Shown here: positions 4,794 to 62,427 of the stretch, piece after piece
How positions within the stretch are numbered: position 1 is the first letter of the stretch
Layout of the letters: each line of letters begins with the position of its first letter
Assembly (NCBI GenBank): GCA_038065455.1
Contig: JBBTQX010000004.1
Coordinates: forward strand, 1-64,000
DNA length: 64,000 nucleotides
Source: Patescibacteria group bacterium
Lineage (GTDB): Bacteria; Patescibacteriota; Minisyncoccia; UBA6257; GWB1-50-10
Reading direction: 5' to 3'
Notes under the pieces: model-generated
Told to the model about the DNA's origin: nothing
The model's database searches: none
The model's input: only the letters and a program-made list of their open reading frames with translations
Translations under genes and position numbers: made by a program

Positions 4794-4932
4794 CCCGTCA
4801 GAGACAGGATGCGCTCCTGCCTGCGCAGGCAGGTAATAAGCGCATCCGTTTGTTATGCAAACTTATATTTAATTCTTCGACTTGGTTGTAATTGTTTCTT
4901 TTCATATATTCACCTTGAACGTCTCTAACGGG
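4794..4932. mobile_element. MITE-like element family A, copy 1 (139 bp) with nested 18-bp palindrome
   Basis: Ends cccgtcagagac / gtctctaacggg, AT on both sides; internal GGATGCGC...GCGCATCC hairpin shared with copies at 8390 and 38108. Confidence 0.7.
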
Positions 4933-4934
4933 AT

Positions 4935-7364: not shown

Positions 7365-7375
7365 GTATCAAGCCC

Positions 7376-8389
7376 TTACATATCGAGCACCGGGCGGCGC
7401 TCTTTCCTTTCGGTCAGATAATTGAAGATTTCTTGGACTAAGACAGCAAGCGGAACACTTAAGATTATCCCCACAAAACCGGCGATTTGGGCCCCAGCCA
7501 AAAGGGAAACAACCACGATTACCGGGTGTACTCTCATACTCTTACCCATTATGATCGGAATGAGTATATGATTCTCAAATTGCTGGACAACAAAAAAGAA
7601 TGCTAAAGCATACATACCCAACGCCGTGGAATCGGCGATAGCGATAACGAAGGCAATAAGCCCAATCATTATAGGACCGATGATCGGCACCACCTCGAAT
7701 ATGGCGGCGAGAATACCCAAAATCAGAGCGTAGCGAACGCCAATAAACCACATTCCCAATCCCACCGCGAAACCGACGAATAGACTCAATACCAGCTGAG
7801 TGCCGAGCCAGCGGCGCATTTTTATCTTGAATCCGTCGAAAATGGATAGAATCGGCCGTTCGTAATCATCCGGGATGATAACCCGTATCATTTTTTCCGC
7901 TCCGTCTTTTTCAATACTCAAATAAAGTGTGACAAAAATCGAGGAGAAGAAAAGAATGGCGTTTCCGAAGAGTTTAGTAATCGCGCCGGGAACGGAATTG
8001 CCCGCGCCCGAAATCAAATTCAATATCTGATCCGCTCCGATATTCAAACTTTCCAAACTCAAGCTGAAATTGCCGAAACGAAAAACCGAAGTAACGAATT
8101 GAGTAAAATGGAAAAGGAAGCCGGCCAGTTCCTCGAAGATAACCGGCGCTATGATGTATATTCCGCCGGCAAAAACGGAAATAATGGCGAGAATCACGAT
8201 GATGGAGGCGAAGACCCGACCGATTCTGGCTTTCTCGGCGAGAAAAGTGACGAATGGGTCTATTCCCATCGAAATCACAACACCCACAAGAAGAACGGTG
8301 AAAGCATCCCAGGCGAAATAAACGAGCGCGATGCCCGCCAGAAAGATAAAAATCCTCCATAAAGTCCCCCAAGCCACTTCCGTTTTCAT
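7376..8389 (-). CDS. AI-2E family (PerM-like) transporter
   Basis: Multi-TM; VPIIGP, QQFENHILIP, VHP, G..G..L..P motifs; real start MKTEV at 8389 (upstream ORF extension comes from the MITE). Confidence 0.88.
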   Translation of the reverse strand: MKTEVAWGTLWRIFIFLAGIALVYFAWDAFTVLLVGVVISMGIDPFVTFLAEKARIGRVFASIIVILAIISVFAGGIYIIAPVIFEELAGFLFHFTQFVTSVFRFGNFSLSLESLNIGADQILNLISGAGNSVPGAITKLFGNAILFFSSIFVTLYLSIEKDGAEKMIRVIIPDDYERPILSIFDGFKIKMRRWLGTQLVLSLFVGFAVGLGMWFIGVRYALILGILAAIFEVVPIIGPIMIGLIAFVIAIADSTALGMYALAFFFVVQQFENHILIPIIMGKSMRVHPVIVVVSLLAGAQIAGFVGIILSVPLAVLVQEIFNYLTERKERRPVLDM

Positions 8390-48524: not shown

Positions 48525-49412
48525 CTAATTCCAAGCTATTGAAGTGGCATCTACATCACCGTCAAGCGCCGTCATCCAAAAGATGGCTTGCCGCTCAACT
48601 TTACCGCTTAAGCTTTTTCCAATGTCCACCGTATCAGTGGACCCATTTTGAAATTTAACAAGCGTTCTTCCGGTAACAATCACGTCAACCATACGTCGGT
48701 AATTATAATTGTAAAGATCTATCTTTTCGCTCCGCACGCCTTTTGTAAGGTGTATCGGAAAAGAAATCAGATCTTTTTTCTCCGGCTCTGTAGGGATGTT
48801 CGCAACGGAATTCTGATAAATTACCGTTGCTACAACCGGCGATTGTTTCACCGATGTAGTATCTAACAGCCAACCTGCCGTCTTCCCATCCCATCTGCTT
48901 ACCGCCCCACCAACAGCATTTAAAGTTGATGGAATAACCGCGTACAAGAAGAAAAGAATTGTAATCCCGATTGCCAGAAAAGTTAACACACTTCTGGAAC
49001 TGGTCACGAATTTTTCCATCCCATAGGGATCATACGATGGAAGAAATATTAATGCCAGAATAACAAGTAAAAATACCGGAATCAGTGATACAACACTTGT
49101 TATTGGAACTATTACCAAATAAAGAGCGAATAATAATTCGAATCCCAGCACCAATCCAATCAATGTCAGAAGACGCCTTCCTCCACTTATCAGTGCAACA
49201 GCGCCAATTAGCAGGGGATCAGCCACAACCATAAAGAATAGGAGAATCCCAATTAAAGCGAATGTGACTGTAAGCCATGGATATCCAAATAATGCGACGA
49301 TAACAATTAAAAACGGATACAAAAAAGAGATAATAATTGCTATCTTTAAAATTAACCAAACCATTAGTACCTGTGGGGTACGGAAAATTTCTACTATTGT
49401 TCTCATTGCCAT
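48525..49412 (-). CDS. Hypothetical multi-TM protein (AT-rich)
   Basis: 295-aa ORF, about 6 N-terminal TMs and a soluble C-terminal domain. Confidence 0.65.
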   Translation of the reverse strand: MAMRTIVEIFRTPQVLMVWLILKIAIIISFLYPFLIVIVALFGYPWLTVTFALIGILLFFMVVADPLLIGAVALISGGRRLLTLIGLVLGFELLFALYLVIVPITSVVSLIPVFLLVILALIFLPSYDPYGMEKFVTSSRSVLTFLAIGITILFFLYAVIPSTLNAVGGAVSRWDGKTAGWLLDTTSVKQSPVVATVIYQNSVANIPTEPEKKDLISFPIHLTKGVRSEKIDLYNYNYRRMVDVIVTGRTLVKFQNGSTDTVDIGKSLSGKVERQAIFWMTALDGDVDATSIAWN

Positions 49413-49984
49413 TCTCCTTTCTTTTCACCTCTGAATTTTCTTAACCAATTTGCGGCATTTTTATCCGCCTCATTGAAGCTTTCCCAAAAACCTTTTCCTT
49501 TGGGTTTGTCGTCAGCAATAACCGGTTCTTCTTTCTTACCGAAGAAGATATCATCAAAGAGTTGGAGCTCTTTCTTTATCTTCTCCGCTTCTTTTTCCAT
49601 GTCCATATCACCGGCTTTTTCCAGACGTTCGAATATTTTACCAACAAAAGCTGCTCTAGTGCTTTCTGCGGCTTTAGAGGAAATATCCTTTTTTTGTTTT
49701 TTTCCAGACACGTCTCCTTCTTTTTTGTTATCCAGTCTATCTGAAACATATTCCAAAAAATCGGAGCTTTTTTCCATTATCGCCGAAAGAAATGGATTAG
49801 AAACTTTCTCTGCTCTTCCTTCTATCCAACTGGTAAAAAGATCGAAACCTCTCTTTAAGATAGGGTTATTTCTTAATTTACTATCCTCCGGGATAAATTT
49901 TTCAACGAACAAGTCGGCAAGTTTTTCCAACTCTGTATTGAAGAAACTCAATGCCTCATTTACGTGTTGTTTTTTAACAGCCAT
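49403..49984 (-). CDS. Hypothetical charged helical protein (AT-rich)
   Basis: 193-aa ORF, AAGGAG SD, TTGACA upstream; overlaps next gene. Confidence 0.65.
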   Translation of the reverse strand: MAVKKQHVNEALSFFNTELEKLADLFVEKFIPEDSKLRNNPILKRGFDLFTSWIEGRAEKVSNPFLSAIMEKSSDFLEYVSDRLDNKKEGDVSGKKQKKDISSKAAESTRAAFVGKIFERLEKAGDMDMEKEAEKIKKELQLFDDIFFGKKEEPVIADDKPKGKGFWESFNEADKNAANWLRKFRGEKKGEWQ

Positions 49985-50105
49985 TTTTACATCTCCTTTC
50001 CTTCCTTTCGGAAGAATCTAGTTATAAGTTAGTTATTTATTATGACAATATTCTGCTTATATCTTAGCATAGAACAAATTAGTTGTCAATTACTCGTAAG
50101 GCACA

Positions 50106-50494
50106 TTCAACCCTCAAGTGCAACACTCATCACCTCCTGGGGTGTTCTCCACCCCAGACGTTTTCTTGGTCTTGAATTTAATGCGCGTTCGACATACGCG
50201 ATATCTTCTTCCTGTATCATAGTGAAATCAGTCTTCTTGGGGAAGTAGTCTCGGATGAGGCCATTCGTGTTTTCGTTCGTGAGCCAGACGAGGGGTATAT
50301 ACTCTGCGCTCCCCGGGAAAGTTTCTCTGCAGCTCCCTGGAGACTGACGATGGAGAGCGATTCAAAACAAAAGCAATAGAACGGACCGATTCCCTTTTCC
50401 ACCTCATCACCTGAATGATTTCCCTCTCTTCGATTGAAAAATGTTGATATGACATACACTTCATTTTACCGAAGTGTTGCACTTACTTGTTGAA
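50106..50494 (-). mobile_element. Internally deleted IS30-family element (both ends retained, about 390 bp)
   Basis: IRs ttcaaccctcaagtgcaacact / agtgttgcacttacttgttgaa; N-terminal HTH (LNRSPSSVSRELQRN) joined out of frame to C-terminus (NENTNGLIRDYFPK...LNSRPRKRLGWRTP). Confidence 0.85.
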
Positions 50495-50541
50495 CTAACT
50501 AAATCGCGGTATTATGCGATAAATAAAGGGTATTTTAGCAT

Positions 50542-50625
50542 GGGCAGGTGGCGAAATTGGCAGACGCACCAACTTTAGGAGTTGGCGATCGCAAGGTCTT
50601 GTGGGTTCAAGTCCCACCCTGCCCA
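50542..50625 (+). tRNA. tRNA-Leu(TAG)
   Basis: GGGCAGG acceptor, anticodon stem CCAAC/GTTGG with loop TTTAGGA, long variable arm, GGTTCAAGTCC. Confidence 0.93.
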
Positions 50626-50703
50626 CTAGATAATTATTAATTCTCCGTATTGGGGCCTGAAACCGATTATTTATCGGTTTGTTTTTGTTCCTATGTTTTA
50701 TCA

Positions 50704-50743
50704 TTACTATCCTATTTATCCGACCGGATAAATAGGATAGTAA
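50704..50743. repeat. 40-bp palindrome (perfect 19-bp arms) downstream of PaaX/Cas2-like gene 1
   Basis: ttactatcctatttatccg-ac-cggataaataggatagtaa. Confidence 0.85.
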
Positions 50744-50799
50744 GAAGACAAAATAAAAAACGTGGAAATAACAATATTGGAAATCGGCAAAAACGAATC

Positions 50800-51387
50800 T
50801 TAGTTGATTTGTTTTAAACTTCCCGCCTTGCTGATTTCAAAAATTTCGACAAAATCAACCATATTAAACTTATCCAAATCATCGATGAATTGTTTTGGGA
50901 TTTTTACTTTGCCAACCCATACGCTTTTCTGAATCATTTTCAAGTCCAGGTTTTTTAAAACTTCTCTAATCCAGGCTCGCTTTGATCTTTCTTTTTCCGG
51001 AATATCGAAAACAACAATGGTAAATTGACCCTTTTCTTTCGAATAGCTCATAGGCCGAGGCAATCTTTTTATATTATCCAATTTCAATTTTTCAAGTTTT
51101 TCTTTTCCTTTTCCGGTAATGGAGAAGAAATTTGTCTTGTTTCTCGCTTCAACTTTTATAAGGCCGTCTTCTTTTAGTTTATAAAGAAGGTTGTAATATT
51201 TTTGTTTAATTTCCGCTTCTTTTTTTCTTCCGGCTCTATCGTCTTTTATTTTATATGTCTCGTGTTCCATTCTACCAATGGAGGCACCGTAACCGGCATT
51301 CAAGAAAGCATTGAAAAAATCAAAACTATTAATTGTCATATCTCCTAAAACCTCCAAAACCTTCAATAAAATATCTCCTTTAGCCAT
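50800..51387 (-). CDS. PaaX-like winged-helix plus Cas2-like domain protein (paralog 1)
   Basis: L.KL...GLI...ITGKG wHTH; IVVFDIPE..R.KR.WIR..L..L...MIQKSVW Cas2-like fold. Confidence 0.8.
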   Translation of the reverse strand: MAKGDILLKVLEVLGDMTINSFDFFNAFLNAGYGASIGRMEHETYKIKDDRAGRKKEAEIKQKYYNLLYKLKEDGLIKVEARNKTNFFSITGKGKEKLEKLKLDNIKRLPRPMSYSKEKGQFTIVVFDIPEKERSKRAWIREVLKNLDLKMIQKSVWVGKVKIPKQFIDDLDKFNMVDFVEIFEISKAGSLKQIN

Positions 51388-51396
51388 ATTTTTATT

Positions 51397-51436
51397 ATAC
51401 TATCTTATTAATCCTATCGGAAAGATAGGATAGTGA
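51397..51436. promoter_or_regulatory. Degenerate copy (32/40) of the 50704 palindrome overlapping the putative -10 box of paralog 1
   Basis: atactatcttattaatcctatcggaaagataggatagtga; minus strand reads TATAAT-aaaaat-ATG. Confidence 0.7.
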
Positions 51437-51472
51437 TTCTATTAATAAAATAAATAGAAGAATATCTTCTTA

Positions 51473-52366
51473 CTATTTGCGGCGGCGGGCGTGGAAGGTC
51501 TGATGGATTTCCTTGAGCTCCTTATTGGTCAGGTGGGTATAGACCTGGGTGGTCGAAATATTGGCGTGGCCCAGAAGCGACTGGACCGAACGCAGGTCGG
51601 CGCCGTTTATAAGAAGGTCGGTGGCAAACGAGTGTCGGATTTGATGGGGGTGGACTTTTTTCGGGATGCCGGCTTTTTTGGCGTAGAAAGAAGTTAATCT
51701 CTGAACGGAACGGGGATTTATCCGGCCGATTACCTTGTTCTTTTTGGTCAGGCTCGCGAAAAGGTATTCCTCGGTATCGCTTCTTTTTTCCAAATAGTTT
51801 TTAATGGATTTTTTGGCCCCCTCCGACAGAAAAACCACCCGGAGCTTGTCGCCTTTTCCGCGCACGGATATTTCGCCCCGCTCCAAATCCAGATAGCGGG
51901 GGAGGGCGCAAAGTTCGGAGAGCCGGAGACCGGTCGAGAAAAATGTTTCCAAAATTGCCCGGTCCCGAAGCGAGCGCAAATCCTTCCCGTCGGGAGCCGA
52001 AACCAGGCGCTCCAATTCTTTATAGTCCAGGGTTTCAATGTCGCGTCGGGAAACCCTCGGCAACTCTATTTTTTCCGGAGCGAGCACTTTTATATCGCGC
52101 TTCAGGAGATATTTCAAAAGATTGCGAATGGCGATTACGTAATAACTCTGGGTATTTTTTTTCAAATCTTTGCGGGAAAGATTTACCCGGAAGTCGCGCA
52201 CCGCATCCTCCGTAATATCCTTAATGGAACGGATTTTCTGGTTTTCCAGAAAAAATTTCAGGTAGCGCCCATAGTTCTCGCGCGTCTTCCGCGAGCGGTT
52301 TCTTTCCACCTCCAGATAGTCCAGATAATCCTTGAGATATTTTTCCGCTTCGGTCATTTGTTTCAT
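51473..52366 (-). CDS. xerC: Tyrosine recombinase XerC/XerD-like
   Basis: RDRAILE..FSTGLR.SEL, GKGDKLR, HPHQIRHSFATDLL, LLGHANISTTQVYTH. Confidence 0.85.
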   Translation of the reverse strand: MKQMTEAEKYLKDYLDYLEVERNRSRKTRENYGRYLKFFLENQKIRSIKDITEDAVRDFRVNLSRKDLKKNTQSYYVIAIRNLLKYLLKRDIKVLAPEKIELPRVSRRDIETLDYKELERLVSAPDGKDLRSLRDRAILETFFSTGLRLSELCALPRYLDLERGEISVRGKGDKLRVVFLSEGAKKSIKNYLEKRSDTEEYLFASLTKKNKVIGRINPRSVQRLTSFYAKKAGIPKKVHPHQIRHSFATDLLINGADLRSVQSLLGHANISTTQVYTHLTNKELKEIHQTFHARRRK

Positions 52367-52393
52367 CTTACCACTTCTGTCGCAAAAGGTTTG

Positions 52394-52591
52394 GGGGTAT
52401 CCCTAGTTCCCTCAAAAAACACGCTATCAAATTCCCCAGTGCCGATAACCTCCGGTTATCGAGCATCCACGATTGCTTTCGCAATCGGGACGTGGAATTT
52501 GCGCTCGCTCTCGGCCTCGCTCTTCCGCTTCGCGGAAACCATGCCCACTCGGCCTGCGAGACGGTTTTCTTGAGGAAATTAGGGATACCCC
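52394..52591. mobile_element. 198-bp MITE-like element (family C) with structured interior
   Basis: TIR ggggtatccctagttccctcaa / ttgaggaaattagggatacccc (20/22); internal hairpins cgataacc..ggttatcg, cgattgc..gcaatcg, ttccgc-ttc-gcggaa. Confidence 0.65.
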
Positions 52592-52736
52592 ATTAATAAA
52601 ATAAAAAGGTGAGGTTTTTCTTCCCAAAGAAATATCTCGAAGCTAGGTTACGACTTTACGAGTGGTAATGAAGGGGATGCGGGAGAGGCGATAAAAACTT
52701 TACAAATTCAAAAACCTGAGATAGAATGGAAAAACC

Positions 52737-53003
52737 ATGTTAACCAAGAGACAAAAGCAGAATGTCATCAAAGAGAGTGCCAAGCACGATACCGATACCG
52801 GCTCCGAGGAGGTCCAAATTGGCCTTCTTTCTAAGCGAATTAAGCTTCTGGCCGATCACCTCAAAAAGAACGCCAAAGATAATCACTCTAGGCGGGGTCT
52901 TTTGATAATGGTGGGCAAACGGCGCCGCTTTCTCCAAGCCCTCAAAGTGGATGACGAGAAGCGCTATACGCAAGTTATGAAGAAGCTCGCAATCGAGGCG
53001 TAA
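52737..53003 (+). CDS. rpsO: 30S ribosomal protein S15
   Basis: DTGSEEVQI, HLK...KDNHSRRGLL.MVGKRRR. Confidence 0.96.
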   Translation: MLTKRQKQNVIKESAKHDTDTGSEEVQIGLLSKRIKLLADHLKKNAKDNHSRRGLLIMVGKRRRFLQALKVDDEKRYTQVMKKLAIEA

Positions 53004-53007
53004 ACAG

Positions 53008-53526
53008 ATGGTTAATAACAATCCAAACCAGAGAGTGGGCGTCTTCATAGATGTCCAGAATATTTACCATTCGGCAAAAAATCTCTACCGTTCCCGCGTC
53101 AATTTCAAAGAATTGATGAAGGCGGTCGTAGGCCGGCGCCAGCTGGTCCGCTCGATGGCTTATGTCATCAAAACGGAAAATACCGAAGGAGAGAGTTCTT
53201 TTTTCGAGGCCCTGCGCCAAGCCGGAATGGAATTAAGAGTGAAAGACCTTCAGATATATCCGGATGGAACGAAAAAAGGCGACTGGGATGTGGGTCTGGC
53301 GGTGGACGCCATGCGGATGGCTTCGACCCTGGATGTCATCGTGCTCGTGACGGGCGACGGCGATTTCGTGCCCCTCGTGGAATATCTGAAGCTCGGAATG
53401 GGCAAAGCAGTGGAAGTCGCGGCTTTCAGCCGGACGGCTTCAGGAAAACTCAAAGAAACTACCGACACCTTCGTCGAGGTGGAACACATTCCCCGGGCGC
53501 TCTTGAGAATAAAGAGCCGGGAATAA
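53008..53526 (+). CDS. NYN domain (LabA/DUF88) protein
   Basis: VFIDVQN, KGDWDV..AVD, LVTGDGDFVP. Confidence 0.9.
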   Translation: MVNNNPNQRVGVFIDVQNIYHSAKNLYRSRVNFKELMKAVVGRRQLVRSMAYVIKTENTEGESSFFEALRQAGMELRVKDLQIYPDGTKKGDWDVGLAVDAMRMASTLDVIVLVTGDGDFVPLVEYLKLGMGKAVEVAAFSRTASGKLKETTDTFVEVEHIPRALLRIKSRE

Positions 53527-53547
53527 ATTTTTAATAAAACAACTAAT

Positions 53548-55599
53548 ATGGACTTAGCGAGAAAAATATACAAAACAAGTATGAAAGGCGAGGAGGTTTC
53601 GTTTGAAGTTTCGAAAATAGCCGGCCAGGCGAATGCGGCCGTCATAGGCCGGCATGGCGATACGGCCGTTTTGGCAGCCGTTGTAATGAGTGAGCAGGAC
53701 AAGAGCGGGGATTTCTTTCCGCTCACAGTTGATTATGAAGAAAGATTTTATGCCGCCGGAAAAATCCTCGGTAGCCGTTTCGTGCGTCGCGAAGGCAAAG
53801 CCACAGATGATGCCGTACTCTCCGCCCGCGTCATCGACCGTACCATCCGCCCGCTCTTCGACCCCCGCCTCCGCCGCGAAGTCCAGGTAGTTATCACTAT
53901 TCTTTCTTACGAAGAAAAAAATGATCCGGATTTTATCGCGCTTCTATCGGCTTCGGCCGCGCTCGCCATCTCCGACATTCCCTGGAACGGCCCAGTGGCC
54001 GGAATGAAGATTATTTCTCCGGAAAATGGAGATATTGCGAGTTATCAGGCTTATTTCGCCGGAACGGATAAGAAAATTAATATGATAGAGTTCGAGGGGA
54101 AAGAGATTTCCGAGAGCGTGGCGGAAAAAGTTTTCGCCGAATGTTTCGAAGAAATCAAAAAATTGGTGGCTTTTCAGAGAGATATCGCGAAGGAAATAGG
54201 AAAACCCAAGGCCCAAGTGGCTCTGGCAACCGCCGATCCGAAAACCCAATCCGTCGTGAATGAATTTTTGAAAGAAGATTTGGAGGAAGCTCTTGCGGCT
54301 AAGCACACCGAAGGGTTACGGAAAAAAATATTGGAACATCTCGAAAAAGCCGGCGAGAATGAGAGCGTGCTCAATTCCGCCGAGGTCTTCTTCGAGGAAG
54401 AGGTGGACAAATATGTCCATACTTTGGCAATAGAAAAAGATAAGCGGGTTGACGGAAGAAAAATGGATGAGGTTCGCGATCTTCATGCCGAAGCCGGTCT
54501 TTTTAAAAGAGTTCATGGCTCGGCGCTCTTCTGCCGAGGTGAAACTCAGGTTTTGGCGATGACAACTCTTGCGACGCCCGAAGGCAAACAACTTGTTGAG
54601 AGCATGGAGGGCACAATCAAGAAGCGTTTTATGCTGAACTATAATTTCCCGGGTTTTGCAACCGGAGAAACAGGACGCTCCAATCGGGGACCCGGCCGCC
54701 GAGAAATCGGCCACGGCGCATTGGCTGCGAAAGCCGTCGTTGCGATGCTGCCCTCCGAAGAAGAATTTCCTTATGCAATCCGCGTCGTTGCCGAAACTCT
54801 TTCCTCGAACGGCTCCTCCTCTATGGCTTCAACCTGCGCAACCTCGCTCTCGCTTATGGATGCCGGCATACCGCTCAAAAAACAAGTGGCTGGAATTTCC
54901 ATCGGATTGATGAGTGATGAAAGCGGCCGCTACAAACTCCTAACCGACATTCAAGGACCGGAAGACCATTACGGAGATATGGATTTCAAGGTGGCCGGCA
55001 CGCGCGACGGAATAAATGCCATTCAGATGGATGTGAAAGTAGACGGTATTACGCTTCAAATTTTCAAAGAAGCTTTAATGGCCGCGAAGACCGCACGCTT
55101 CCAAATACTGGATGTTATGGATAAAACGCTTTCCGCACCCCGCGCAGATCTTTCGCCTTTTGCGCCCCGTATCACAACCATCCAAATCCCCATTGAAAAT
55201 ATCGGGCAAATTATCGGTCCGGGCGGAAAAACAATTAACGGCATTCTGGCTCAGACCCAAAATAAGGTAACGATAGATATCGAAGAAGACGGAAGAATAT
55301 TTATCGCCGGCACCGATTCGGCTCTCGTCGCTCAAGCGGTTTCGATAATCAAAGGAATTGCGAAGGATGTGAATATCGGAGAAATGGTTGAAGGAACGAT
55401 AATTAAAATATTGGATTTTGGAGCAATTGTGGATCTCGGCGGCGGCAAAGATGGAATGATCCATGTTTCCGAACTCAAAGAAGGTTTTGTTAAAAAAGTG
55501 GAAGATGTCGTCAAGGTGGGCGATTTTGTAAGAGCGAAAGTAATCCGATCGGAGGACGGAAAAATCGGACTTTCTCTGAAGCAGGTGGCGGCGAAGTAA
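53548..55599 (+). CDS. pnp: Polyribonucleotide nucleotidyltransferase
   Basis: FFPLTVDYEE, RREIGHG, SNGSSSMA, GDMDFKVAGT, KH and S1 domains. Confidence 0.96.
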   Translation: MDLARKIYKTSMKGEEVSFEVSKIAGQANAAVIGRHGDTAVLAAVVMSEQDKSGDFFPLTVDYEERFYAAGKILGSRFVRREGKATDDAVLSARVIDRTIRPLFDPRLRREVQVVITILSYEEKNDPDFIALLSASAALAISDIPWNGPVAGMKIISPENGDIASYQAYFAGTDKKINMIEFEGKEISESVAEKVFAECFEEIKKLVAFQRDIAKEIGKPKAQVALATADPKTQSVVNEFLKEDLEEALAAKHTEGLRKKILEHLEKAGENESVLNSAEVFFEEEVDKYVHTLAIEKDKRVDGRKMDEVRDLHAEAGLFKRVHGSALFCRGETQVLAMTTLATPEGKQLVESMEGTIKKRFMLNYNFPGFATGETGRSNRGPGRREIGHGALAAKAVVAMLPSEEEFPYAIRVVAETLSSNGSSSMASTCATSLSLMDAGIPLKKQVAGISIGLMSDESGRYKLLTDIQGPEDHYGDMDFKVAGTRDGINAIQMDVKVDGITLQIFKEALMAAKTARFQILDVMDKTLSAPRADLSPFAPRITTIQIPIENIGQIIGPGGKTINGILAQTQNKVTIDIEEDGRIFIAGTDSALVAQAVSIIKGIAKDVNIGEMVEGTIIKILDFGAIVDLGGGKDGMIHVSELKEGFVKKVEDVVKVGDFVRAKVIRSEDGKIGLSLKQVAAK

Positions 55600-55664
55600 T
55601 TTACCGGGCCCGGTCTATCTTATCCACAACACAGAAAATTCTCAGGTGGTATAATATAAGGACA

Positions 55665-56741
55665 ATGGCAAATGAAAACTTAATGGGTGCAGGCGAGGGC
55701 GAGTCTCCGTTGATGAAGCCGGCCGCTCCGAACGTCGACGTGCGGACGATGAGTTCCGACATGCAGTCGATTAATACCGGCAGTCCCACTCCGAAACCTT
55801 ATGTTCCGCAAACAGCGCCCGAAAATATGGCTGTAGTTCCTCCGGTTCCGAATACTTCCGTTCCAGATCAATCATTCCAGATACCTCAGGCGGACACAAC
55901 CTTCGGTTCGCCGATGCCAGAAATACCAGTCAAAAAAAGTGGTAAGGGGGTCTTCACGGCTATCATAGTTTTCATTGCGGTCGTCGGCCTCGCGGCTCTC
56001 GGCTACTTCGTCATTTATCCGATTTTCTTCGCCAATCCGAATTCATTTCCGATTGCAATTCCGATTAATATGAATCCCAATCCGGCGCCGGCGCTTCCCG
56101 CAACCGAGCCGACCCCGATATCCGAACCGGCTCCGATTACCGAAGTCGTTTCTTCTACCGCGCCCGTAGCGCCCGCTACGCCGGCACCAACCCACGTTTC
56201 GATTCTTACGATTCCGGCCGATAGTAAACTTGAATTAAGCACGGTACTGAAATACGGACCGGTGCTTTCCAATCTAGCCTTGAATACGACCGCCTCGCCC
56301 AGCCTTACTGAAATAATTTACAAGGACTCAAATGGAAATTTATTAGAAACCGCTGATATTCTCAAAAACGTTTTGAAATTGGAAGCCTTAGCTTTCAATT
56401 ACCAATTCAATGAGGGGGGAGCGGCTGGAATGGTTTATAATGACAGTAAAAATGTCCGCTCACTCGGTTTTGTTTTCCAATTGGCTGATAATACCGATTT
56501 GGAAACAAAAATAAGCGGTCTTCAATCTTTCATCGAAAAATTGGGTTTTAGCGGAATTTTTTCGGGCAACCCGGGAGCGGAAAAAGCCTGGAAATCCAGC
56601 CAGGTTTCCGGCGCATCGAATCATCGCTATCTCACTTTCGAAAATCCTGGTTTTACCATCGATTACGGCTGGGTCGGAAATAAACTGGTAATCGCTACCT
56701 CATTTGACGGCTTCAAAGAGATAATCAAGAGGCTTCAATAA
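55665..56741 (+). CDS. Hypothetical single-TM protein with Pro/Thr-rich linkers
   Basis: VRTM..D N-terminal motif, Pro-rich region, TM, Pro/Thr-rich stalk, C-terminal domain. Confidence 0.7.
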   Translation: MANENLMGAGEGESPLMKPAAPNVDVRTMSSDMQSINTGSPTPKPYVPQTAPENMAVVPPVPNTSVPDQSFQIPQADTTFGSPMPEIPVKKSGKGVFTAIIVFIAVVGLAALGYFVIYPIFFANPNSFPIAIPINMNPNPAPALPATEPTPISEPAPITEVVSSTAPVAPATPAPTHVSILTIPADSKLELSTVLKYGPVLSNLALNTTASPSLTEIIYKDSNGNLLETADILKNVLKLEALAFNYQFNEGGAAGMVYNDSKNVRSLGFVFQLADNTDLETKISGLQSFIEKLGFSGIFSGNPGAEKAWKSSQVSGASNHRYLTFENPGFTIDYGWVGNKLVIATSFDGFKEIIKRLQ

Positions 56742-56746
56742 TAATT

Positions 56747-57079
56747 ATGAACAAGGAAGATTTGAAAAAAATCGAAGAGAAGCTCCTCTCCGAAAAACTT
56801 GAAATTGAAAAAGACTTGGAAAAATTAAAAGAGGGATTGGATTTCGGAAGCGATGTGGATAATTTCGACGAAGAATCGGATGAAGCGGAAGAAATGGGCA
56901 ACTATTTAGGCATTAAAAAAACCCAAGACGCCCGATTGAGCCAAATCGACAAAGCCATCCAAAAAATAAAAGAGGGGACTTATGGTACTTGCGGAAAATG
57001 CGGAAAATTAATAGAAATGGAAATTTTGGAGATAGACCCGGAATCGTTCCTTTGTAAAAACTGCAAGCGCGGAGCCTAA
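56747..57079 (+). CDS. DksA/TraR family C4 zinc-finger protein
   Basis: Coiled coil with DEAEE tip, GTYGTCGKCG...CKNC. Confidence 0.85.
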   Translation: MNKEDLKKIEEKLLSEKLEIEKDLEKLKEGLDFGSDVDNFDEESDEAEEMGNYLGIKKTQDARLSQIDKAIQKIKEGTYGTCGKCGKLIEMEILEIDPESFLCKNCKRGA

Positions 57080-57088
57080 AAATAAACG

Positions 57089-58627
57089 ATGCCGGCGGTT
57101 CCCAAACTTTATTCCGCAGAATTGGATGGTGTAAACGCCGAACTTATCGAAGTGGAGGCCGACTTGAATGTCGGCCTCCATTCTTTCAACATCGTCGGTC
57201 TCGCCGACAAGGCCCTAACGGAAGCGAAGGAGCGGGTTAATTCCGCCCTCAAAAATTCCGGCATTAAGCCGCCCTCAAAAGAGAATCGGCGCATCACCAT
57301 AAATCTCGCGCCGGCCGACGTGAAAAAAGTCGGCTCGAGATTCGACCTGCCTGTCGCGCTCGCTTATCTTTTGGCAAGCGAGCAATTAAAAAGTTTTGAA
57401 ACGAAAGATAAGATGTTTATCGGCGAGCTTTCGCTCGACGGCGCCTTGCGTCCGGTCGCGGGCGCTTTGAACGCGGCGCTTCTCGCCCAAAGAAAAGGTT
57501 TCAAAGAAATATTCGTTCCGGCGGGAAACGCGGTCGAGGCCGCGATTCTCGAAAACATCAAGGTTTTTGGCGTGAAAAATCTGGTCGAAATAATCGGGCA
57601 CCTGGAAGGAACCGCGCCCATCGCTCCGCAAATAAAGACCGAGATGACTCCCGGATATTCGGGGGTTTTCGTGAAACTGAGCGAGGTCAGGGGCCAGGCG
57701 GCGGCCAAACGGGCGCTTATAATCGCCGCGGCGGGCGGCCACAATCTGCTCTTCTCGGGTCCGCCCGGCACAGGAAAAACAATGCTGGCCCAGGCGATGA
57801 ATTCGATTATTCCACCGCCCTCCCTCGAAGAAACAATCGAAATAACGGAGATTTGGAGCGCCGCCGGCCTTTTGAATCGGGCGAGTCCGGTTATCGATTT
57901 CCGCCCTTTTCGGGCGCCGCATCACAACGCCTCGCTTATATCCATTATCGGGGGCGGTTCGATTCCTAAACCGGGCGAGATAAGTCTGGCTCACCGGGGC
58001 GTGCTCTTCTTGGATGAGATGCCGGAATTCCATCGCGACGCGCTCGAGAGCCTGCGCCAACCGCTCGAATCCGGCTCGGTAAGCATCGCCCGTTCCAAAA
58101 AATCGCTGGTTTTTCCGGCCCGATTCATCCTTGTTGCCGCGATGAATCCCTGCCCCTGCGGATATTTCAACGACCCGGAAAAAGAATGCCGGTGCACGGC
58201 GAACGAGGTATTCCGCTACCACAAAAAGATTTCCGGGCCACTAATGGACCGGATTGATATCCAACTTGAAGTGCCAAGGATACCCGTCGAAGAACTGCGA
58301 CGAGAAGAAAACAGCGAAAACGATGAACCAGTCAGAAAAAAAATTAGGGAGGTGAGAGATGTTCAGCGGGAAAGATTTAAAAAAAACGGCTTCAAAATAT
58401 TCACGAATGCCGAAATGTCTTCGCGCCAGACGGAACAAATTGCGAAACTCGAGACTGGAGCGGAAAATTTCCTCAAGGAAACTTTGGAAAAGAATTTCAT
58501 TTCCATCCGCGGCTATTACCGCATCCTCAAAGTTTCCCGAACCATCGCCGATCTCGAAGAAAGTTTGGAAATAAAAACGGACCACTTGGCGGAAGCGTTC
58601 CAGTATAGGCTGAAAATTGGGGAATAA
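57089..58627 (+). CDS. comM: ComM/YifB Mg-chelatase-like AAA+ ATPase
   Basis: IVGL.D..EAKERV, GPPGTGKT, PFRAPHH, PGEISLAHRGVLFLDE, AMNPCPCG. Confidence 0.93.
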   Translation: MPAVPKLYSAELDGVNAELIEVEADLNVGLHSFNIVGLADKALTEAKERVNSALKNSGIKPPSKENRRITINLAPADVKKVGSRFDLPVALAYLLASEQLKSFETKDKMFIGELSLDGALRPVAGALNAALLAQRKGFKEIFVPAGNAVEAAILENIKVFGVKNLVEIIGHLEGTAPIAPQIKTEMTPGYSGVFVKLSEVRGQAAAKRALIIAAAGGHNLLFSGPPGTGKTMLAQAMNSIIPPPSLEETIEITEIWSAAGLLNRASPVIDFRPFRAPHHNASLISIIGGGSIPKPGEISLAHRGVLFLDEMPEFHRDALESLRQPLESGSVSIARSKKSLVFPARFILVAAMNPCPCGYFNDPEKECRCTANEVFRYHKKISGPLMDRIDIQLEVPRIPVEELRREENSENDEPVRKKIREVRDVQRERFKKNGFKIFTNAEMSSRQTEQIAKLETGAENFLKETLEKNFISIRGYYRILKVSRTIADLEESLEIKTDHLAEAFQYRLKIGE

Positions 58628-59491
58628 TTATTTGCTGACTGCAAAGGGATTTTTCGCGCCGAAAACCTCGAAATGAAGATGGCATCCCGTCGGGCCGTGC
58701 GTGTTGCCGGTATTTCCCATTATGCCAACTTCTTCGCCGCGGCTTACGTATTGCCCAATCTTCACGAGAACCTTATCCAAGTGAGCGTAGCGGGTTTTCA
58801 CGCCGTTTGGATGTTCAAGAAGAACAAAGGTTCCGTAGCCGTTGTTCCAGCCGCTCGCGCCATCTCCCAAAACACTGTCCGAAATCACAAGACCTTCCGC
58901 CGCAGCATGCACAGACGTACCGCACTGATTCGCGATATCCACCGCATTAGCATTATGGAGCTGGCCCCAATTCCAGCCGATTGCCGGCAAAGCGAAATAA
59001 TCCTTGAGATCGGGGAGAATACCATCCACGGAAACGGCTTGAATCGCCGACTTGTCCTCCAGAGGCGAAACCACGATTGTATCGCCTTGTTTTATCGTCT
59101 TCACTCCCGGATTAAGCTTCTTGAGAGCGTCCGCCGAAAGGCCGAGGTTCGCGGCAATCTTCTGGAAAGTATCACCCTTTCTCACTTTGTATTTTTTGAG
59201 GCCGTCGCCCAGGAATATCAGATTGGTAAGAGGATCCGAGGCGCCGGAAACAGCCGTACCCTCCGCCAAAAAAACGTTGTTTTCGGCCGTGTCGGCCGGA
59301 GCGCCCGGATAAACGACATCACCCGAAGCAGAGGAGCGTCCGGCCCCCAATTCCTCTACCGGACCGCCCGAACTCCAGGCCGCCGGCCTCTCATAGGCTT
59401 CGGTGTTGCGCCAAAACCAGAAAACGGACGCGTTCAAAACCAGGAAAGCGGGGATAAAAAGGAGCGACCAGAAACTGGTCGTTTTGAACAT
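58628..59491 (-). CDS. LysM plus M23 peptidase
   Basis: YKVRKGDT LysM; H.ANAVDIA, TRYAHL, HLHFEV. Confidence 0.88.
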   Translation of the reverse strand: MFKTTSFWSLLFIPAFLVLNASVFWFWRNTEAYERPAAWSSGGPVEELGAGRSSASGDVVYPGAPADTAENNVFLAEGTAVSGASDPLTNLIFLGDGLKKYKVRKGDTFQKIAANLGLSADALKKLNPGVKTIKQGDTIVVSPLEDKSAIQAVSVDGILPDLKDYFALPAIGWNWGQLHNANAVDIANQCGTSVHAAAEGLVISDSVLGDGASGWNNGYGTFVLLEHPNGVKTRYAHLDKVLVKIGQYVSRGEEVGIMGNTGNTHGPTGCHLHFEVFGAKNPFAVSK

Positions 59492-59554
59492 CCCCTTAAA
59501 AAGGGGCTTAAATTGAAGTAAAATCGTACTAATAGGGGTATTATACCAAAACGA

Positions 59555-60352
59555 ATGGAAAAATCAAAGAAAAGCCTCGGTCAGAATTTCCTGTTAAACA
59601 AGGAGAAAATAAAAGAGATTGTTGGGGCGCTGGACATAAAATCCGGCGATGTGGTGGTTGAAATCGGTCCCGGACACGGGGAGCTGACGAAAGAACTGAT
59701 AACTAATGACAAATTACGAATAATCGCAATTGAGAAAGACGAGGGGTTGGTGGAAAAACTTGGAGATGAAATGAAGAAACATGGAGATAAAATCGAAATT
59801 ATAGCCGGCGATGCGTTAAAAATGCTTCCGGACGTAGTTTCGGGTTATGGGTCAAAAACAAGTTATAAGTTAATTGGAAATATTCCCTATTACATCACCG
59901 GCTTCCTTTTGAGAACGATAAGCGAATTGGAGCACAAGCCGAAAATCACCGTTCTCACGGTCCAAAAAGAGGTGGCCAAGCGTATCTGCGGAGAAATGAA
60001 TTTGCTCTCCGCGAGTGTCCGATACTGGGCGGAACCGGAAATCATCGGTATTATTCCCAAGTCGGATTTTTCTCCCCAACCCAAAGTGGACTCGGCGATT
60101 ATCAGGTTAAAAACCATAAACAAAAAACGAGAAACGGGGGATGAGGCGAAAAGTGCCGAGAATTATCATAAATTCATAAAAATTCTCTTCAAACAACCCC
60201 GAAAAACCATATTGAACAATTTGCTTGGAATGGGGAAAAACAAGGTGGAAATTGAGAAAATCCTAAAAGAAAATAGTATAGACCATAACAGCCGGGCCCA
60301 AAATCTCAATGTGTCTCAAATAAGAGAACTGGCTCGGATTTTTACCGCTTAA
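59555..60352 (+). CDS. rsmA: 16S rRNA dimethyladenosine transferase
   Basis: KKSLGQNFL, VEIGPGHG, GNIPYYIT, F.PQPKVDS. Confidence 0.95.
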   Translation: MEKSKKSLGQNFLLNKEKIKEIVGALDIKSGDVVVEIGPGHGELTKELITNDKLRIIAIEKDEGLVEKLGDEMKKHGDKIEIIAGDALKMLPDVVSGYGSKTSYKLIGNIPYYITGFLLRTISELEHKPKITVLTVQKEVAKRICGEMNLLSASVRYWAEPEIIGIIPKSDFSPQPKVDSAIIRLKTINKKRETGDEAKSAENYHKFIKILFKQPRKTILNNLLGMGKNKVEIEKILKENSIDHNSRAQNLNVSQIRELARIFTA

Positions 60353-60410
60353 AAACAAGCAAAAACCGTAAAAACAGAAAAATATTAGTAATTCATTATA
60401 ATTTAGAATA

Positions 60411-60448
60411 TTGCAAAGTTATACTGTCATGACATAATAACTTAGTAA
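60411..60448. promoter_or_regulatory. Degenerate copy (34/38) of the 61030 palindrome ending 1 nt before the ATG of paralog 2
   Basis: ttgcaaagttatactgtcatgacataataacttagtaa; the mismatches create TATACT. Confidence 0.75.
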
Positions 60449-60449
60449 A

Positions 60450-61019
60450 ATGCGAATTAGGAGAAACTCACAACCCTATCGCCTTCTTAAATACCTTGCT
60501 ATAGGCACCGGTGTTTTGACACTCTCTCTTATAGCGCCGGTAAGCGGCGCGATGCTGGTGAAAAATTTTATCCGCTATTATTTCAGGAATAAAAAGTTTC
60601 AAAAATATCGATTTCTAAATGATTTGAAAAATCTCCAAAGTAGAGAATTGGTATCGTATAAAGAGGAGGGGAGAGGAGTGGTGAAAATCACCCTTACTAA
60701 GAACGGCCGGGAGAAAATACTGCGGTACCAAATTGATGAAATAAAAATAAAAAAGCCCGCCCGCTGGGATGGGCAATGGCGGCTGATAATGTTTGATATA
60801 CCGCATTACAAACGCATTGCCCGCGACGCTTTTCGGACAAAGCTGAAAAATTTGGAATTCTATCCTATTCAGAAAAGCGTATTTATCACTCCTTATCCCT
60901 GCGAGAATGAGATAGATTTTATAGCGTCTATTTTTGATGTAAGAAAAGAGGTTCTTATCCTTTATGTGAGCCGATTTGAAGGGGAGGAGAAATTCAAAAA
61001 TCACTTCAAAATATACTAA
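60450..61019 (+). CDS. PaaX-like winged-helix plus Cas2-like domain protein (paralog 2)
   Basis: L..L....LV...LTKNG wHTH; WDGQWRLIMFDIP...R..FR.KL..L.F..IQKSVF..PYPC. Confidence 0.82.
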   Translation: MRIRRNSQPYRLLKYLAIGTGVLTLSLIAPVSGAMLVKNFIRYYFRNKKFQKYRFLNDLKNLQSRELVSYKEEGRGVVKITLTKNGREKILRYQIDEIKIKKPARWDGQWRLIMFDIPHYKRIARDAFRTKLKNLEFYPIQKSVFITPYPCENEIDFIASIFDVRKEVLILYVSRFEGEEKFKNHFKIY

Positions 61020-61029
61020 ATATTCGCTA

Positions 61030-61067
61030 TTACAAAGTTATTATGTCATGACATAATAACTTTGTAA
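61030..61067. repeat. Perfect 38-bp palindrome 10 nt after the stop of paralog 2
   Basis: ttacaaagttattatgtcatgacataataactttgtaa equals its own reverse complement. Confidence 0.9.
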
Positions 61068-61174
61068 AAATGTAGAAAAAAGGGAGAGGGGGAATGAAGG
61101 AGAAAGATGGTGATAGAGGAGGATGGGGAGTGGGGAGAGAGAAAGAAAAAAGGAAAAAGTGGGGGCTGTTTGAT

Positions 61175-61537
61175 TTAAAATAAACTAACTCCTGCTTTCC
61201 AGATGGTACCTTCCGCCGTAATGGGTACCGGAAGCACGCAAACCCCTCCCGGGATGGCGGTTCCCAAGACTTTCGCGCCGGGTTTAAGAATGAAATTTTC
61301 GTAAATCACGGAAACACCCGGCTGATAAAGAAAAACTCCGGGTCTAGGTTGCCCAACCGTAATAAGAATGCCATTAGTGCAAGGAACGGCGACTAAGATA
61401 TTGCCCCCGAAAGGAATGATCAGTCCTATTGCTGAAGCGAATTGAGGGAAAATAAGCATACCGACAGCAAGAAAAAAGAAAGAAAAAGAAGATATAATAA
61501 AAAACATTTTCACTCCTCTGTAAAACATGTTAGGCAT
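61175..61537 (-). CDS. Hypothetical small exported protein
   Basis: Signal peptide ending ASA; PFGG...PCTNG...VLG.A.P...C pattern. Confidence 0.6.
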   Translation of the reverse strand: MPNMFYRGVKMFFIISSFSFFFLAVGMLIFPQFASAIGLIIPFGGNILVAVPCTNGILITVGQPRPGVFLYQPGVSVIYENFILKPGAKVLGTAIPGGVCVLPVPITAEGTIWKAGVSLF

Positions 61538-61618
61538 TGTTCAAAAAGGCTTATTTAAGCCAAAAACATTATAACATCCGGCGGCAAAATATAGTATACT
61601 GATAACATCTCGAATTAT

Positions 61619-62416
61619 ATGAAAAAAAGGAAAATAATCTCCGCCATTATTTTATTGAGCGGTTTGGCATTTTTTCTGCTAATCGTCAATTCCACCGGAA
61701 AAAATCAAGAATTTCCGGCCATGGTAGCCCTGAATAAGAATAACTCTGAATCCGGTTTTGACTACCGAACCGATAAAAATCGGGACATTATCCCGAGCGC
61801 GATTTCCGGAACAAATATGTCTCCCGCGACCGACAATTTAACCGAATTGCTCGCTAAAAACATTTCCAGTGGAATTCTCACGGTAAACAGTAAACTAGTA
61901 TCCGAACAAGGAACTTCTTCCATTGCCCTTCCTTCATCTAATTCGTTGGGCAACTCCATAGAGCAGTCTATCGAGCAAAATATGAAATTCCCGGTCTTCG
62001 GCTTAAAAGATATCAGAATCGGCTCTGATAATTCGCCGGAGGCCCAACTCGCTTATTTCAACACAATCGGGGAAATATCCAAGAAAAACTTTGGGAATTT
62101 CAAAACCTCCATCGTGACAATGCTCAATAATTTAATTGAAAATAACGATTCCACCGCACTCGCCAAATACGCTAGAATTGCAAATAAACAAGTCGCTGAT
62201 TTTCTTGCGCTTAAAGTCCCGGAACAACTTTCCGCTTGGCATCTACAAAACCTGAATTTATGGCAGAAGAAATTCACGGCCTATTCCGCGATGGCTAATT
62301 TGAGTTCCGATCCGCTCAAAATGATTATCGCCTTCAAAGAGGTTCCGAATATCGTGCAGGAAACATTGAATTTGGATTCAGTGATGAAAGAAAAATATTT
62401 AAAATTGATACCATAA
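61619..62416 (+). CDS. Hypothetical membrane-anchored protein
   Basis: N-terminal TM, NLTE.LA motif, helical C-terminus (VP.....HL...N). Confidence 0.7.
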   Translation: MKKRKIISAIILLSGLAFFLLIVNSTGKNQEFPAMVALNKNNSESGFDYRTDKNRDIIPSAISGTNMSPATDNLTELLAKNISSGILTVNSKLVSEQGTSSIALPSSNSLGNSIEQSIEQNMKFPVFGLKDIRIGSDNSPEAQLAYFNTIGEISKKNFGNFKTSIVTMLNNLIENNDSTALAKYARIANKQVADFLALKVPEQLSAWHLQNLNLWQKKFTAYSAMANLSSDPLKMIIAFKEVPNIVQETLNLDSVMKEKYLKLIP

Positions 62417-62427
62417 TGGATTTATTG

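Follow-up and report, generated by a model that had tools for sequence, protein, structure and literature searches.

Short PaaX-type genes of Patescibacteria lie between paired copies of their own palindromes, suggesting autorepressors with a second operator behind the gene

Two genes in a 64,000-nucleotide stretch of a groundwater Patescibacteria genome, hereafter the window, encode small proteins related to the repressor PaaX, and each gene lies between two copies of a palindrome of its own (genes A and B, palindromes A and B; Table 1). The source genome comprises 654,420 bp in 10 contigs, is 100% complete and has a G+C content of ~47%; its relatives are Patescibacteria metagenome-assembled genomes (MAGs) labelled Jorgensenbacteria, Harrisonbacteria, Paceibacterota and similar. 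We refer to its contigs as C1-C10, the window being C4:1-64000, to the genome itself as G000, to the same-genus genomes as G001-G004 and to homologue loci as Lnnn. Gene A is flanked by tRNA-Leu(tag), which is convergent with it, and by a XerC/D-type recombinase gene. Gene B is preceded by rsmA and faced by a convergent open reading frame (ORF) of 120 amino acids (aa); it has no further-upstream in-frame start (a stop lies at 60438-60440), and its homologues align from residue 1-3 onward. The two proteins are 34% identical over their last 100 residues, and no other gene of the genome encodes a PaaX_M domain.

An earlier, sequence-only reading of this DNA had described both genes and all four palindromes, which we find where it placed them. 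Over 37 nt, the copies of palindrome A share 84% identity, their 19-nt halves having 3 and 4 mismatches; for palindrome B, identity is 90% over 42 nt and the halves have 3 and 1 mismatches. Palindromes A and B have no sequence relation to each other; the TTAC...GTAA ends that had been singled out are common to the two but are not a feature of the family. Each 19-nt half-site, searched at up to 3 mismatches, occurs exclusively at its two copies in the genome, and both perfect copies rank within the genome's five longest distinct perfect palindromes. To score flank repeats, we took for each gene the highest-scoring gap-free alignment of the sequence before its start with the sequence after its stop, counting +1 for a match and -1.5 for a mismatch. 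For flanks of 150 nt this gives 32 for gene B and 22.5 for gene A, and a score of at least 14 is reached by 10 of 479 ORFs of at least 150 aa in the same genome, A and B included. The other high scorers are an ssb-like gene in a long direct repeat, two RAYT-like genes with palindromes of their own and low-complexity matches. At the ssb-like gene (C6:6917-7387), a 104-nt direct repeat occupies both flanks and gives a score of 61.5.

The same layout recurs across the family. Of 41 related genomes, 26 carry PaaX_M genes (1-5 copies per genome), as do about a quarter of genomes sampled evenly across the phylum (76 of 301; up to 12 copies); clustered at 50% identity, the family in public data forms 6,202 clusters. 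Among an initial 30 genes from relatives, ~23 had one palindrome on both sides, differing from gene to gene. To these were added the best 80 of 521 confirmed relatives in named MAGs (from 596 pattern matches) and 55 metagenome loci; the resulting 159 family genes, minus 10 duplicates and 9 short-flanked genes, left 140 that were tested with 200-nt flanks, a pair being called at a score of at least 17. This score is reached by 116 of the 140, with 124 reaching at least 14 and 100 at least 20. Among 61 other ORFs of 140-263 aa from the same loci, 2 reach 14 and none reaches 17. Because control ORFs rarely attain such scores, a chance origin of the flank repeats at A and B is excluded. The paired palindromes, whose generality among homologues the sequence-only reading had put forward as a test, are thus a general feature, and they persist when genes are clustered by protein identity (113 of 136 clusters at 90%, 93 of 109 at 70% and 35 of 47 at 50%).

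Where both copies are palindromic (84 genes), the median distance is 30 nt from the end of the upstream copy to the start codon and 26 nt from the stop to the beginning of the downstream copy, with the two centres 576-858 bp apart (median 660). A perfect arm of at least 15 bp is found in 47 of 116 downstream copies versus 27 of 116 upstream copies (Wilcoxon p = 0.008), so that the contrast between a degenerate upstream and a perfect downstream copy, first seen in the window, holds as a tendency and not as a rule. Loci L008 and L053, which have extra copies 200-590 nt past the stop, were considered as brackets with cargo and rejected, there being no ORF longer than 68 aa between the copies. One family gene (L114:2462-3010) contains a single in-frame stop and may be a pseudogene, a sequencing error or a case of another genetic code.

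Both proteins match the Pfam model PaaX_M (PF20803; 47.1 bits for A and 73.1 for B, cut-off 24) and narrowly pass that of Cas2 (PF09827; 29.9 and 25 bits, cut-off 23.8). The remaining Pfam matches are weak ones to winged helices, with no HUH/Y1 transposase domain. The full-length PaaX model TIGR02277 fails for both (19.7 and 20.6 bits against a cut-off of 264.55), and the proteins stop after PaaX_M, at 195 and 189 aa, without the C-terminal helical domain of PaaX; we found no longer fused relatives, a negative that carries little weight. An AlphaFold (AF2) model built from 74 sequences (mean pLDDT 84) shows a winged helix with helices at residues 8-18, 35-44 and 52-64 and its wing at 68-82; next come a linker helix and, at 110-186, a beta-alpha-beta-beta-alpha-beta domain. 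It replaced a first model from 23 sequences in which residues 1-50 were poor and Foldseek matched the Cas2-like part alone. With the second model, the top Foldseek hit is Escherichia coli PaaX (8a39; E = 6.1e-5, 193 columns), followed by Jannaschia 3l09 and Rv0674 3kfw, and Cas2 and VapD structures match the C-terminal domain alone; a search of the PDB by sequence alone gave nothing below E 0.09. The aspartate that follows strand 1 of the Cas2 fold in the FDIP motif (D116) is invariant in the 74 sequences. Pfam, the AF2 model and Foldseek agree with the earlier assignment of a winged helix joined to a Cas2/VapD-like fold, as in PaaX.

A homodimer model scored 0.46 against 0.00 for the best control, with at least 92% contact agreement between runs and a partner pLDDT of 81; this mark is reached by 20 of 30 solved one-chain pairs and by 1 of 23 solved single-chain proteins. 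As Cas2 and PaaX dimers have already been solved, this pass may reflect no more than likeness to them. The predicted interface involves residues 109-116, 140-144 and 169-177 of the Cas2-like sheet. The likeness to Cas2 thus comprises the ferredoxin-like fold, weak matches to Cas2 models and a predicted dimer through the same sheet; the difference is that the domain in A and B is fused to a winged helix. Some database entries, many in our weighing, name family members 'CRISPR-associated endonuclease Cas2', which is a mis-annotation to be corrected. PADLOC returned weak Cas2 models only, the 100%-complete genome has no Cas1, and the two palindrome copies are the only repeats at the A and B loci, with no CRISPR-array setting, in keeping with the absence of cas1 and CRISPR arrays noted before.

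To describe the site itself, we superposed 93 loci at their dyads and determined, position by position, the symmetry between arms and the identity between copies. Next to the dyad, at bp 1-4, both measures reach 0.90-0.99; they drop to 0.68-0.79 over bp 5-8, recover to 0.78-0.92 over bp 9-18 and are at background level beyond bp 20. This bipartite profile points to a dyad-symmetric protein with two contact zones per half-site on double-stranded DNA. Gene conversion is disfavoured as the cause of the likeness between copies, because it would even out all positions alike. A close relative on a metagenome contig (L120; 87-90% DNA identity, same gene order, protein 84% identical) has the centre GCCATGGC in both copies, where both window copies have GTCATGAC, amounting to four coordinated substitutions. 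Across the family, the palindrome goes with the type of protein: A-type proteins occur with ..CACGATCGTG.. or ..ACGGCCGT.. centres, B-type proteins with GC-N4-GC centres and AT-rich spacers, and 'MAKTS'-type proteins with GCCTCAAAAT outer arms and CATATG or CACGTG centres.

Mutual information, corrected and computed between residues and palindrome positions for 75 distinct B-type proteins, places the strongest pairs in two groups, residues 57 and 61 with bp 12-14 and residues 119, 122, 126 and 142 with bp 1-4. Arg57 occurs with G14 in 32 of 35 cases, Gln57 with T14 in 9 of 14 and Arg61 with G13 in 19 of 21. In the AF2 model, both residues are carried, one turn apart, by the third helix (52-64), the recognition helix of the fold. 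A tree built without the tested columns has 17 changes of Arg57 and 16 of G14; out of 8 independent pairs placed on supported branches, the characters differ in the same way in 4.6, in the opposite way in 0.1 and show no difference in 3.3, making the Arg57-G14 covariation suggestive. The top pair by mutual information, H119 with bp 2, was set aside: all 14 histidines lie in a single clade, so it counts as one event. That each paralogue recognises its cognate palindrome, as had been proposed along with a search for covariation at the recognition helix, is the best reading of the match between subfamilies and palindromes, the concerted change in L120 and the covariation of residues 57 and 61 with outer-box bases. 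At one locus, L064, two family genes (2501-3067, plus strand, and 4683-5249, minus strand) encode proteins 71% identical whose outer boxes are nearly alike (TAACTGGTTA), the spacer alone differing, and cross-talk between them may occur.

The upstream copies coincide with promoter-like sequences. In upstream copy B, TTGCAA (60411-60416) is followed after 16 nt by CATAAT (60433-60438), itself preceded by TG, and the change from TTACAA in the perfect copy to TTGCAA improves the -35 element. The TATAAT hexamer before gene A overlaps the gene-proximal end of its upstream palindrome (Table 1). Of the 116 family genes with a pair, 30 have a -10-like hexamer whose end lies 6-7 nt ahead of the start codon, the spacing expected for transcription from the A of the ATG. 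Such a hexamer is present in the gene-facing arm of the upstream copy at 31 of 93 loci; for the remaining three arms, the counts are 8, 14 and 16 of 93. The degeneracy of upstream copies is thus probably in part an adaptation of the weakly constrained bp 5-8 to promoter function. The lack of Shine-Dalgarno (SD) sequences was dropped as an argument for leaderless transcripts: they precede 13 of 116 family genes and 34 of 378 long ORFs of the genome, and in a genome that is SD-poor throughout their rarity is uninformative.

The downstream copies have a different setting. Neither of those in the window is called as an intrinsic terminator, and no T-run follows either. Downstream copy B is promoter-like in both directions; an antisense promoter as the purpose of this copy was rejected, as the family shows no such enrichment (14 and 16 of 93 downstream arms, against the 31 of 93 in the gene-facing upstream arm). 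The next gene downstream of the 116 paired genes is co-directional in 58 cases and convergent in 44, and there is none within 600 nt in 14; with orientation so mixed, the bracket is a module independent of its neighbours. Being neither terminator-like nor promoter-enriched, independent of orientation and under the same position-specific constraint as the upstream copy, the downstream copy is best read as a second operator for the same dimer.

The bracket is not confined to PaaX-type genes. The slot after rsmA in G003 holds a gene of the Trp_repressor family (E = 2.4e-8) with a paired palindrome of its own, and among TrpR-like (PF01371) genes of relatives 14 of 30 score at least 17, in two longer subfamilies and two further genes, as compared with 7.5-10.5 for the canonical forms of 96-107 aa. 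The own genome has one such bracketed gene (Table 1). As this family lacks the Cas2-like fold, that fold was rejected as the cause of the layout, and explanations by Cas2-like nuclease chemistry are disfavoured; the bracket is a design of at least two unrelated DNA-binding folds in these genomes.

From the layout, its generality, the position-specific conservation and the covariation, all of which are direct observations, we infer binding, repression and a role for the downstream site. We consider it somewhat probable that these genes encode autorepressors that bracket themselves, with a second and usually better operator behind their own gene. The protein would be a short PaaX-type repressor with an N-terminal winged helix and a Cas2-like dimerisation domain and with no ligand-binding domain, and its dimer would read a dyad site of ~38-40 bp on double-stranded DNA. 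The recognition helix (52-64 in B) would contact the outer box, 9-18 bp from the dyad, and the Cas2-like dimer would sit over the central 8 bp. With the upstream copy overlapping the core promoter of a leaderless or nearly leaderless mRNA, the bound protein would shut off its own gene. The copy behind the stop would be a second operator, usually the better palindrome, kept alike by selection. Two occupied sites would most likely cooperate, by a loop of ~660 bp enclosing the gene, by roadblocks or by both, either of which would make autorepression sharper and protect the cassette against transcription coming from its neighbours.

Several points weigh against this interpretation. Simple autorepression has no need of a downstream site, whose role is the weakest link in the argument. 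There is no helical phasing in the centre distances of 91 loci (p = 0.37 for a period of 10.5 bp; within 9-12 bp the lowest p is 0.03, uncorrected, and the minimum over 250 periods 0.0045), a null that is uninformative at a spacing of 660 bp. No pair was found within 200 nt at 24 of the 140 genes, of which 2 have copies further downstream, 2 have weaker pairs, 6 have one strong palindrome and the rest have none. Our promoters are consensus matches, and the scan called no full promoter for gene A, its -35 element being weak. The tree-aware covariation is underpowered (median sign-test p 0.0625 for R57/G14, other pairs weaker), and the residue-base pairs examined on the tree had been chosen from the mutual-information scan. 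Finally, it is hard to see what a cell would gain from a ligand-less repressor that controls only itself; the genome's solo sites suggest additional targets or, alternatively, remnants of lost cassettes.

That the downstream copy acts alone, with no loop, is an unlikely alternative. It could be a roadblock that ends the gene's own transcript or antisense transcripts from convergent neighbours, or a high-affinity decoy that sets a threshold for occupation of the weaker copy at the promoter. The greater frequency of perfect arms downstream, the closeness of the copy to the stop, the lack of a T-run or terminator call at the window copies, the missing phasing and the convergent neighbours of both window genes would all suit such a role. 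The same data fit looping equally well, however, and with a convergent neighbour in just 44 of 116 cases, shielding from convergent genes cannot be the general reason for the site.

The sequence-only reading had also raised a mobile or excisable cassette. In such a unit the palindromes would be ends or recombination sites recognised by the protein, as in RAYT/REP systems, and excision through them would leave a solo palindrome. The family does turn over. The slot between rsmA and a conserved 'MKKRKIIS' gene (59555-62416 in the window, compared with L032-L035 and L120) differs between members of the genus. Gene B and the 120-aa ORF occupy it in the window and L120; G002 has a small membrane protein there and G003 the bracketed TrpR-like gene; and it is empty in G004 and G001, where rsmA directly abuts the 'MKKRKIIS' gene and there is no palindrome. 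None of the 4 same-genus genomes thus has gene B behind rsmA. G003 retains gene A between xerC and tRNA-Leu, with conserved outer arms and drifted inner arms; in G002, 11 nt separate the tRNA from xerC, and gene A and the palindrome are both absent. The genes are therefore not strictly syntenic, and empty alleles exist. Proteins 70-83% identical are often found in unrelated contexts, and the three paralogues of a single MAG, 70-75% identical, differ from one another in recognition helix and outer box.

Active movement left no trace in our data. In 20 of 20 pairs of 100% identical proteins the flanks match wherever both are long enough to compare, and no near-identical copy stands in a new context among the compared family loci; at 72-77% DNA identity, homology stops within or near the coding region, so that element borders cannot be read. 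Contigs of 4 sequencing runs contain no deletion or circle joints, their uncovered parts being uninformative. In these data, unitigs break at 61030-61067, as expected for a palindrome, and a 267-nt contig equal to 60712-60978 shows just that the sequence is present in an RNA library. None of 91 pattern matches in viral contigs was confirmed. Because identical proteins keep their flanks and there are neither joints nor viral relatives, we read the turnover as gains and losses over evolutionary time and see nothing that indicates active mobility. We therefore hold a mobile cassette to be improbable. In its favour are the patchy presence of the family at 1-12 copies per genome, the empty sites, the related proteins in unrelated contexts, solo family-type palindromes in islands rich in toxin-antitoxin and insertion-sequence (IS) genes, and the position of gene A beside a tRNA gene, a tyrosine recombinase and an IS30-like helix-turn-helix fragment. 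Against it, beyond the stability of flanks, stand empty sites without any palindrome, a recombinase that is a conserved XerC/D-type gene (83-95% identical across the genus), bracketed TrpR-like proteins without a catalytic domain and a conservation pattern that fits a repressor site.

Still less probable is that the downstream copy is the operator of the neighbouring gene, or a member of a small regulon brought beside its regulator by local duplication. A co-directional neighbour in 58 of 116 cases and the toxin-antitoxin genes next to extra A-type and B-type sites elsewhere in the genome would agree with it. No promoter is expected at the 44 of 116 downstream copies with a convergent neighbour, though, both window genes among them; the copy lies a median of 26 nt from the stop versus 175 nt for the next co-directional start; and neighbours vary between loci. 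An RNA-level switch, in which both palindromes are transcribed as hairpins at the mRNA ends and bound or cut by the Cas2/VapD-like domain, is hardly credible: the fold of that domain, its invariant FDIP-motif aspartate, the ribonuclease activity of some Cas2 and VapD proteins and a 19-bp stem that would fold readily speak for it, but a hairpin would have its centre unpaired and its stem constrained evenly, whereas the centre of these palindromes is their most symmetric part (0.90-0.98) and stem positions 5-8 the least constrained, the mismatches of upstream copy B are not G-U compatible, an upstream copy that overlaps the promoter would in leaderless geometry stay mostly untranscribed, the TrpR-like family has the same layout without a Cas2-like domain, and an Rfam scan of 49000-63000 (E up to 1) found the tRNA alone, with no RNA family on the palindromes. 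Of what the sequence-only reading had raised, the generality, co-diversification and empty sites thus stand, whereas RNA processing and active mobility find no support.

Taken together, the self-bracketing autorepressors and the TrpR-like genes might belong to one general, so far unrecognised design in ultra-small Patescibacteria, a possibility that we raise tentatively and consider doubtful as a whole. At least two unrelated folds, the short PaaX-type and the long TrpR-like one, would each enclose their gene in a loop or between roadblocks, units would be gained and lost whole, and solo palindromes would be footprints or extra targets. The Cas2-like domain would itself read the central 8 bp in a sequence-specific way; covariation with bp 1-4 is seen at its residues 119, 122, 126 and 142, which lie near the dimer axis. 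If true, this would be a DNA-reading role for the Cas2 fold.

PaaX offers the closest comparison. In a review (PMC9493321), the E. coli PaaX site is given as TGATTC(N27)GAATCA, a 39-bp dyad with outer half-sites, and PaaX is described as repressing its own promoter by steric hindrance. Our palindromes of 38-40 bp over promoter-like hexamers would match that site in length and logic, and the proteins, like PaaX, join a winged helix to a Cas2-like dimerisation domain, with alignments of ~180-193 columns at the top Foldseek hits. They differ in that the C-terminal helical domain of PaaX, which binds phenylacetyl-CoA, is missing from A and B; in that the short family is confined here to Patescibacteria, with 1-12 divergent paralogues per genome; and in the second operator proposed behind the gene, for which the passages on PaaX in that review show no counterpart. 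The ORFs around A and B, the region searched for them, include no paa genes. As a short form, the proteins belong to a kind already known, the PaaX-type winged-helix repressors with long dyad operators. New here are the loss of the ligand domain, the expansion to thousands of divergent, apparently orthogonal Patescibacteria paralogues and, above all, the second, putative operator behind the gene.

Other known systems resemble parts of the layout. Repressors that loop DNA include lambda CI (OL-OR), phage 186 CI (FL/FR) and LacI (O1 with O2/O3), in which a distant operator strengthens and sharpens repression, and in lambda the repressor operon lies between OL and OR. Here, by contrast, two copies of one sequence sit tight around the repressor's own gene, ~660 bp apart, outward-facing promoters are not needed, and the loop itself is a proposal. 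RAYT/REP and IS200/IS605 elements likewise consist of a gene flanked by cognate palindromes that differ between paralogues. Unlike them, A and B have no HUH/Y1 domain, their palindromes exist in two copies each plus at most 1-3 related solo sites and are not widely dispersed, and the conservation pattern is that of a dimeric repressor site. Integron cassettes pair a promoter-poor ORF with a following imperfect palindrome (attC) that differs between cassettes; here a copy lies on both sides and overlaps the promoter, there is no integron integrase or array, and the encoded protein matches the site.

A keyword-level literature search returned no published description of the self-bracketed layout, and to our knowledge almost nothing is known of gene regulation in Patescibacteria (the candidate phyla radiation, CPR). 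An operator behind its own gene, kept over deep divergence in two unrelated folds, would go beyond textbook autorepression. Since each gene carries two copies of its own site, these genomes offer hundreds of natural repressor-operator pairs, a data set for the winged-helix recognition code (candidate rules being Arg57-G14 and Arg61-G13) and a possible source of mutually orthogonal repressors for synthetic circuits.

A scan of the own genome weighted over bp 1-4 and 9-18 found the solo sites of Table 1. Those on C8 and at C10:24456 all adjoin RelE/ParE-, HicAB- or IS-type genes, with no PaaX_M gene near, and may be further targets or footprints of lost cassettes. The surroundings of solo sites are mostly Phd/RelE-like, HicAB, RelE-like and IS-type transposase genes. 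A further solo palindrome of family type, again with no PaaX_M gene nearby, lies at C10:4055-4090.

Table 1. Coordinates of the bracketed genes, their palindromes and neighbours in the window, and of related loci and sites elsewhere.
Feature	Position	Strand	Description
tRNA-Leu(tag)	50542-50626		Convergent with gene A
Palindrome A, downstream copy	50704-50743		Perfect; 19-bp arms, 2-nt centre; 56 nt past gene A stop; between gene A and tRNA-Leu(tag)
Gene A	50800-51387	-	195-aa short PaaX-type protein; winged helix and Cas2-like PaaX_M (residues 119-189)
TATAAT hexamer	51394-51399	-	Ends 6 nt before gene A ATG; overlaps gene-proximal end of upstream palindrome; leaderless geometry
Palindrome A, upstream copy	51397-51436		Degenerate; 9-10 nt before start codon; putative promoter-overlapping operator
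XerC/D-type recombinase gene	51473-52366		Flanks gene A
rsmA	59555-60352		Precedes gene B
Palindrome B, upstream copy	60411-60448		Degenerate; ends 1 nt before ATG; putative promoter and operator
Gene B	60450-61019	+	189-aa short PaaX-type protein; predicted recognition helix 52-64, Cas2-like domain 110-186
Palindrome B, downstream copy	61030-61067		Perfect, 19+19 bp, no spacer; 10 nt past stop; between gene B and ORF 61175-61537
120-aa ORF	61175-61537		Convergent, faces gene B
Bracketed TrpR-like gene, own genome	C8:25022-25420		Copies centred near 25007 and 25466
Other TrpR-like loci with bracket	L035/L197:2309-2815; L180, L184, L186, L188-L194, L200-L202		
Solo A-type site	C8:63766-63805 (centre 63785)		Perfect palindrome; 22/26 weighted positions
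Solo B-type site	C8:63653-63692		21/28 positions
Solo B-type sites	C8:82430-82467 (centre 82448) and C10:24456-24493 (centre 24474)		One 59-nt repeat, 95% identical; 23/28 positions

The genome contains other palindromes and fragments of mobile elements. Its longest perfect palindrome (C8:92482-92531; 23-bp arms, 4-nt loop) lies between GIY-YIG-like and NYN-domain-like genes. Two IS200/RAYT-like genes, C10:7392-8102 (with palindromes 7367-8127) and C3:12622-13329, have an HUH motif visible in translation and flanking palindromes of their own; the former has three palindrome copies, one inside the ORF. A 26-30-bp palindrome, GGGTGGTGTCTTTAAAGACACCACCC, is dispersed over at least 8 places (C2:182, 1219, 53921 and 69615; C8:35921; C10:20803, 21040 and 27561) and could be a REP-like or global-regulator site. 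In the window, an 84-aa ORF directly upstream of tRNA-Leu (50228-50482, minus strand) consists of an HTH_38 domain alone (E = 9.8e-15) and may be the N-terminal remnant of a transposase, presumably of IS30 type.

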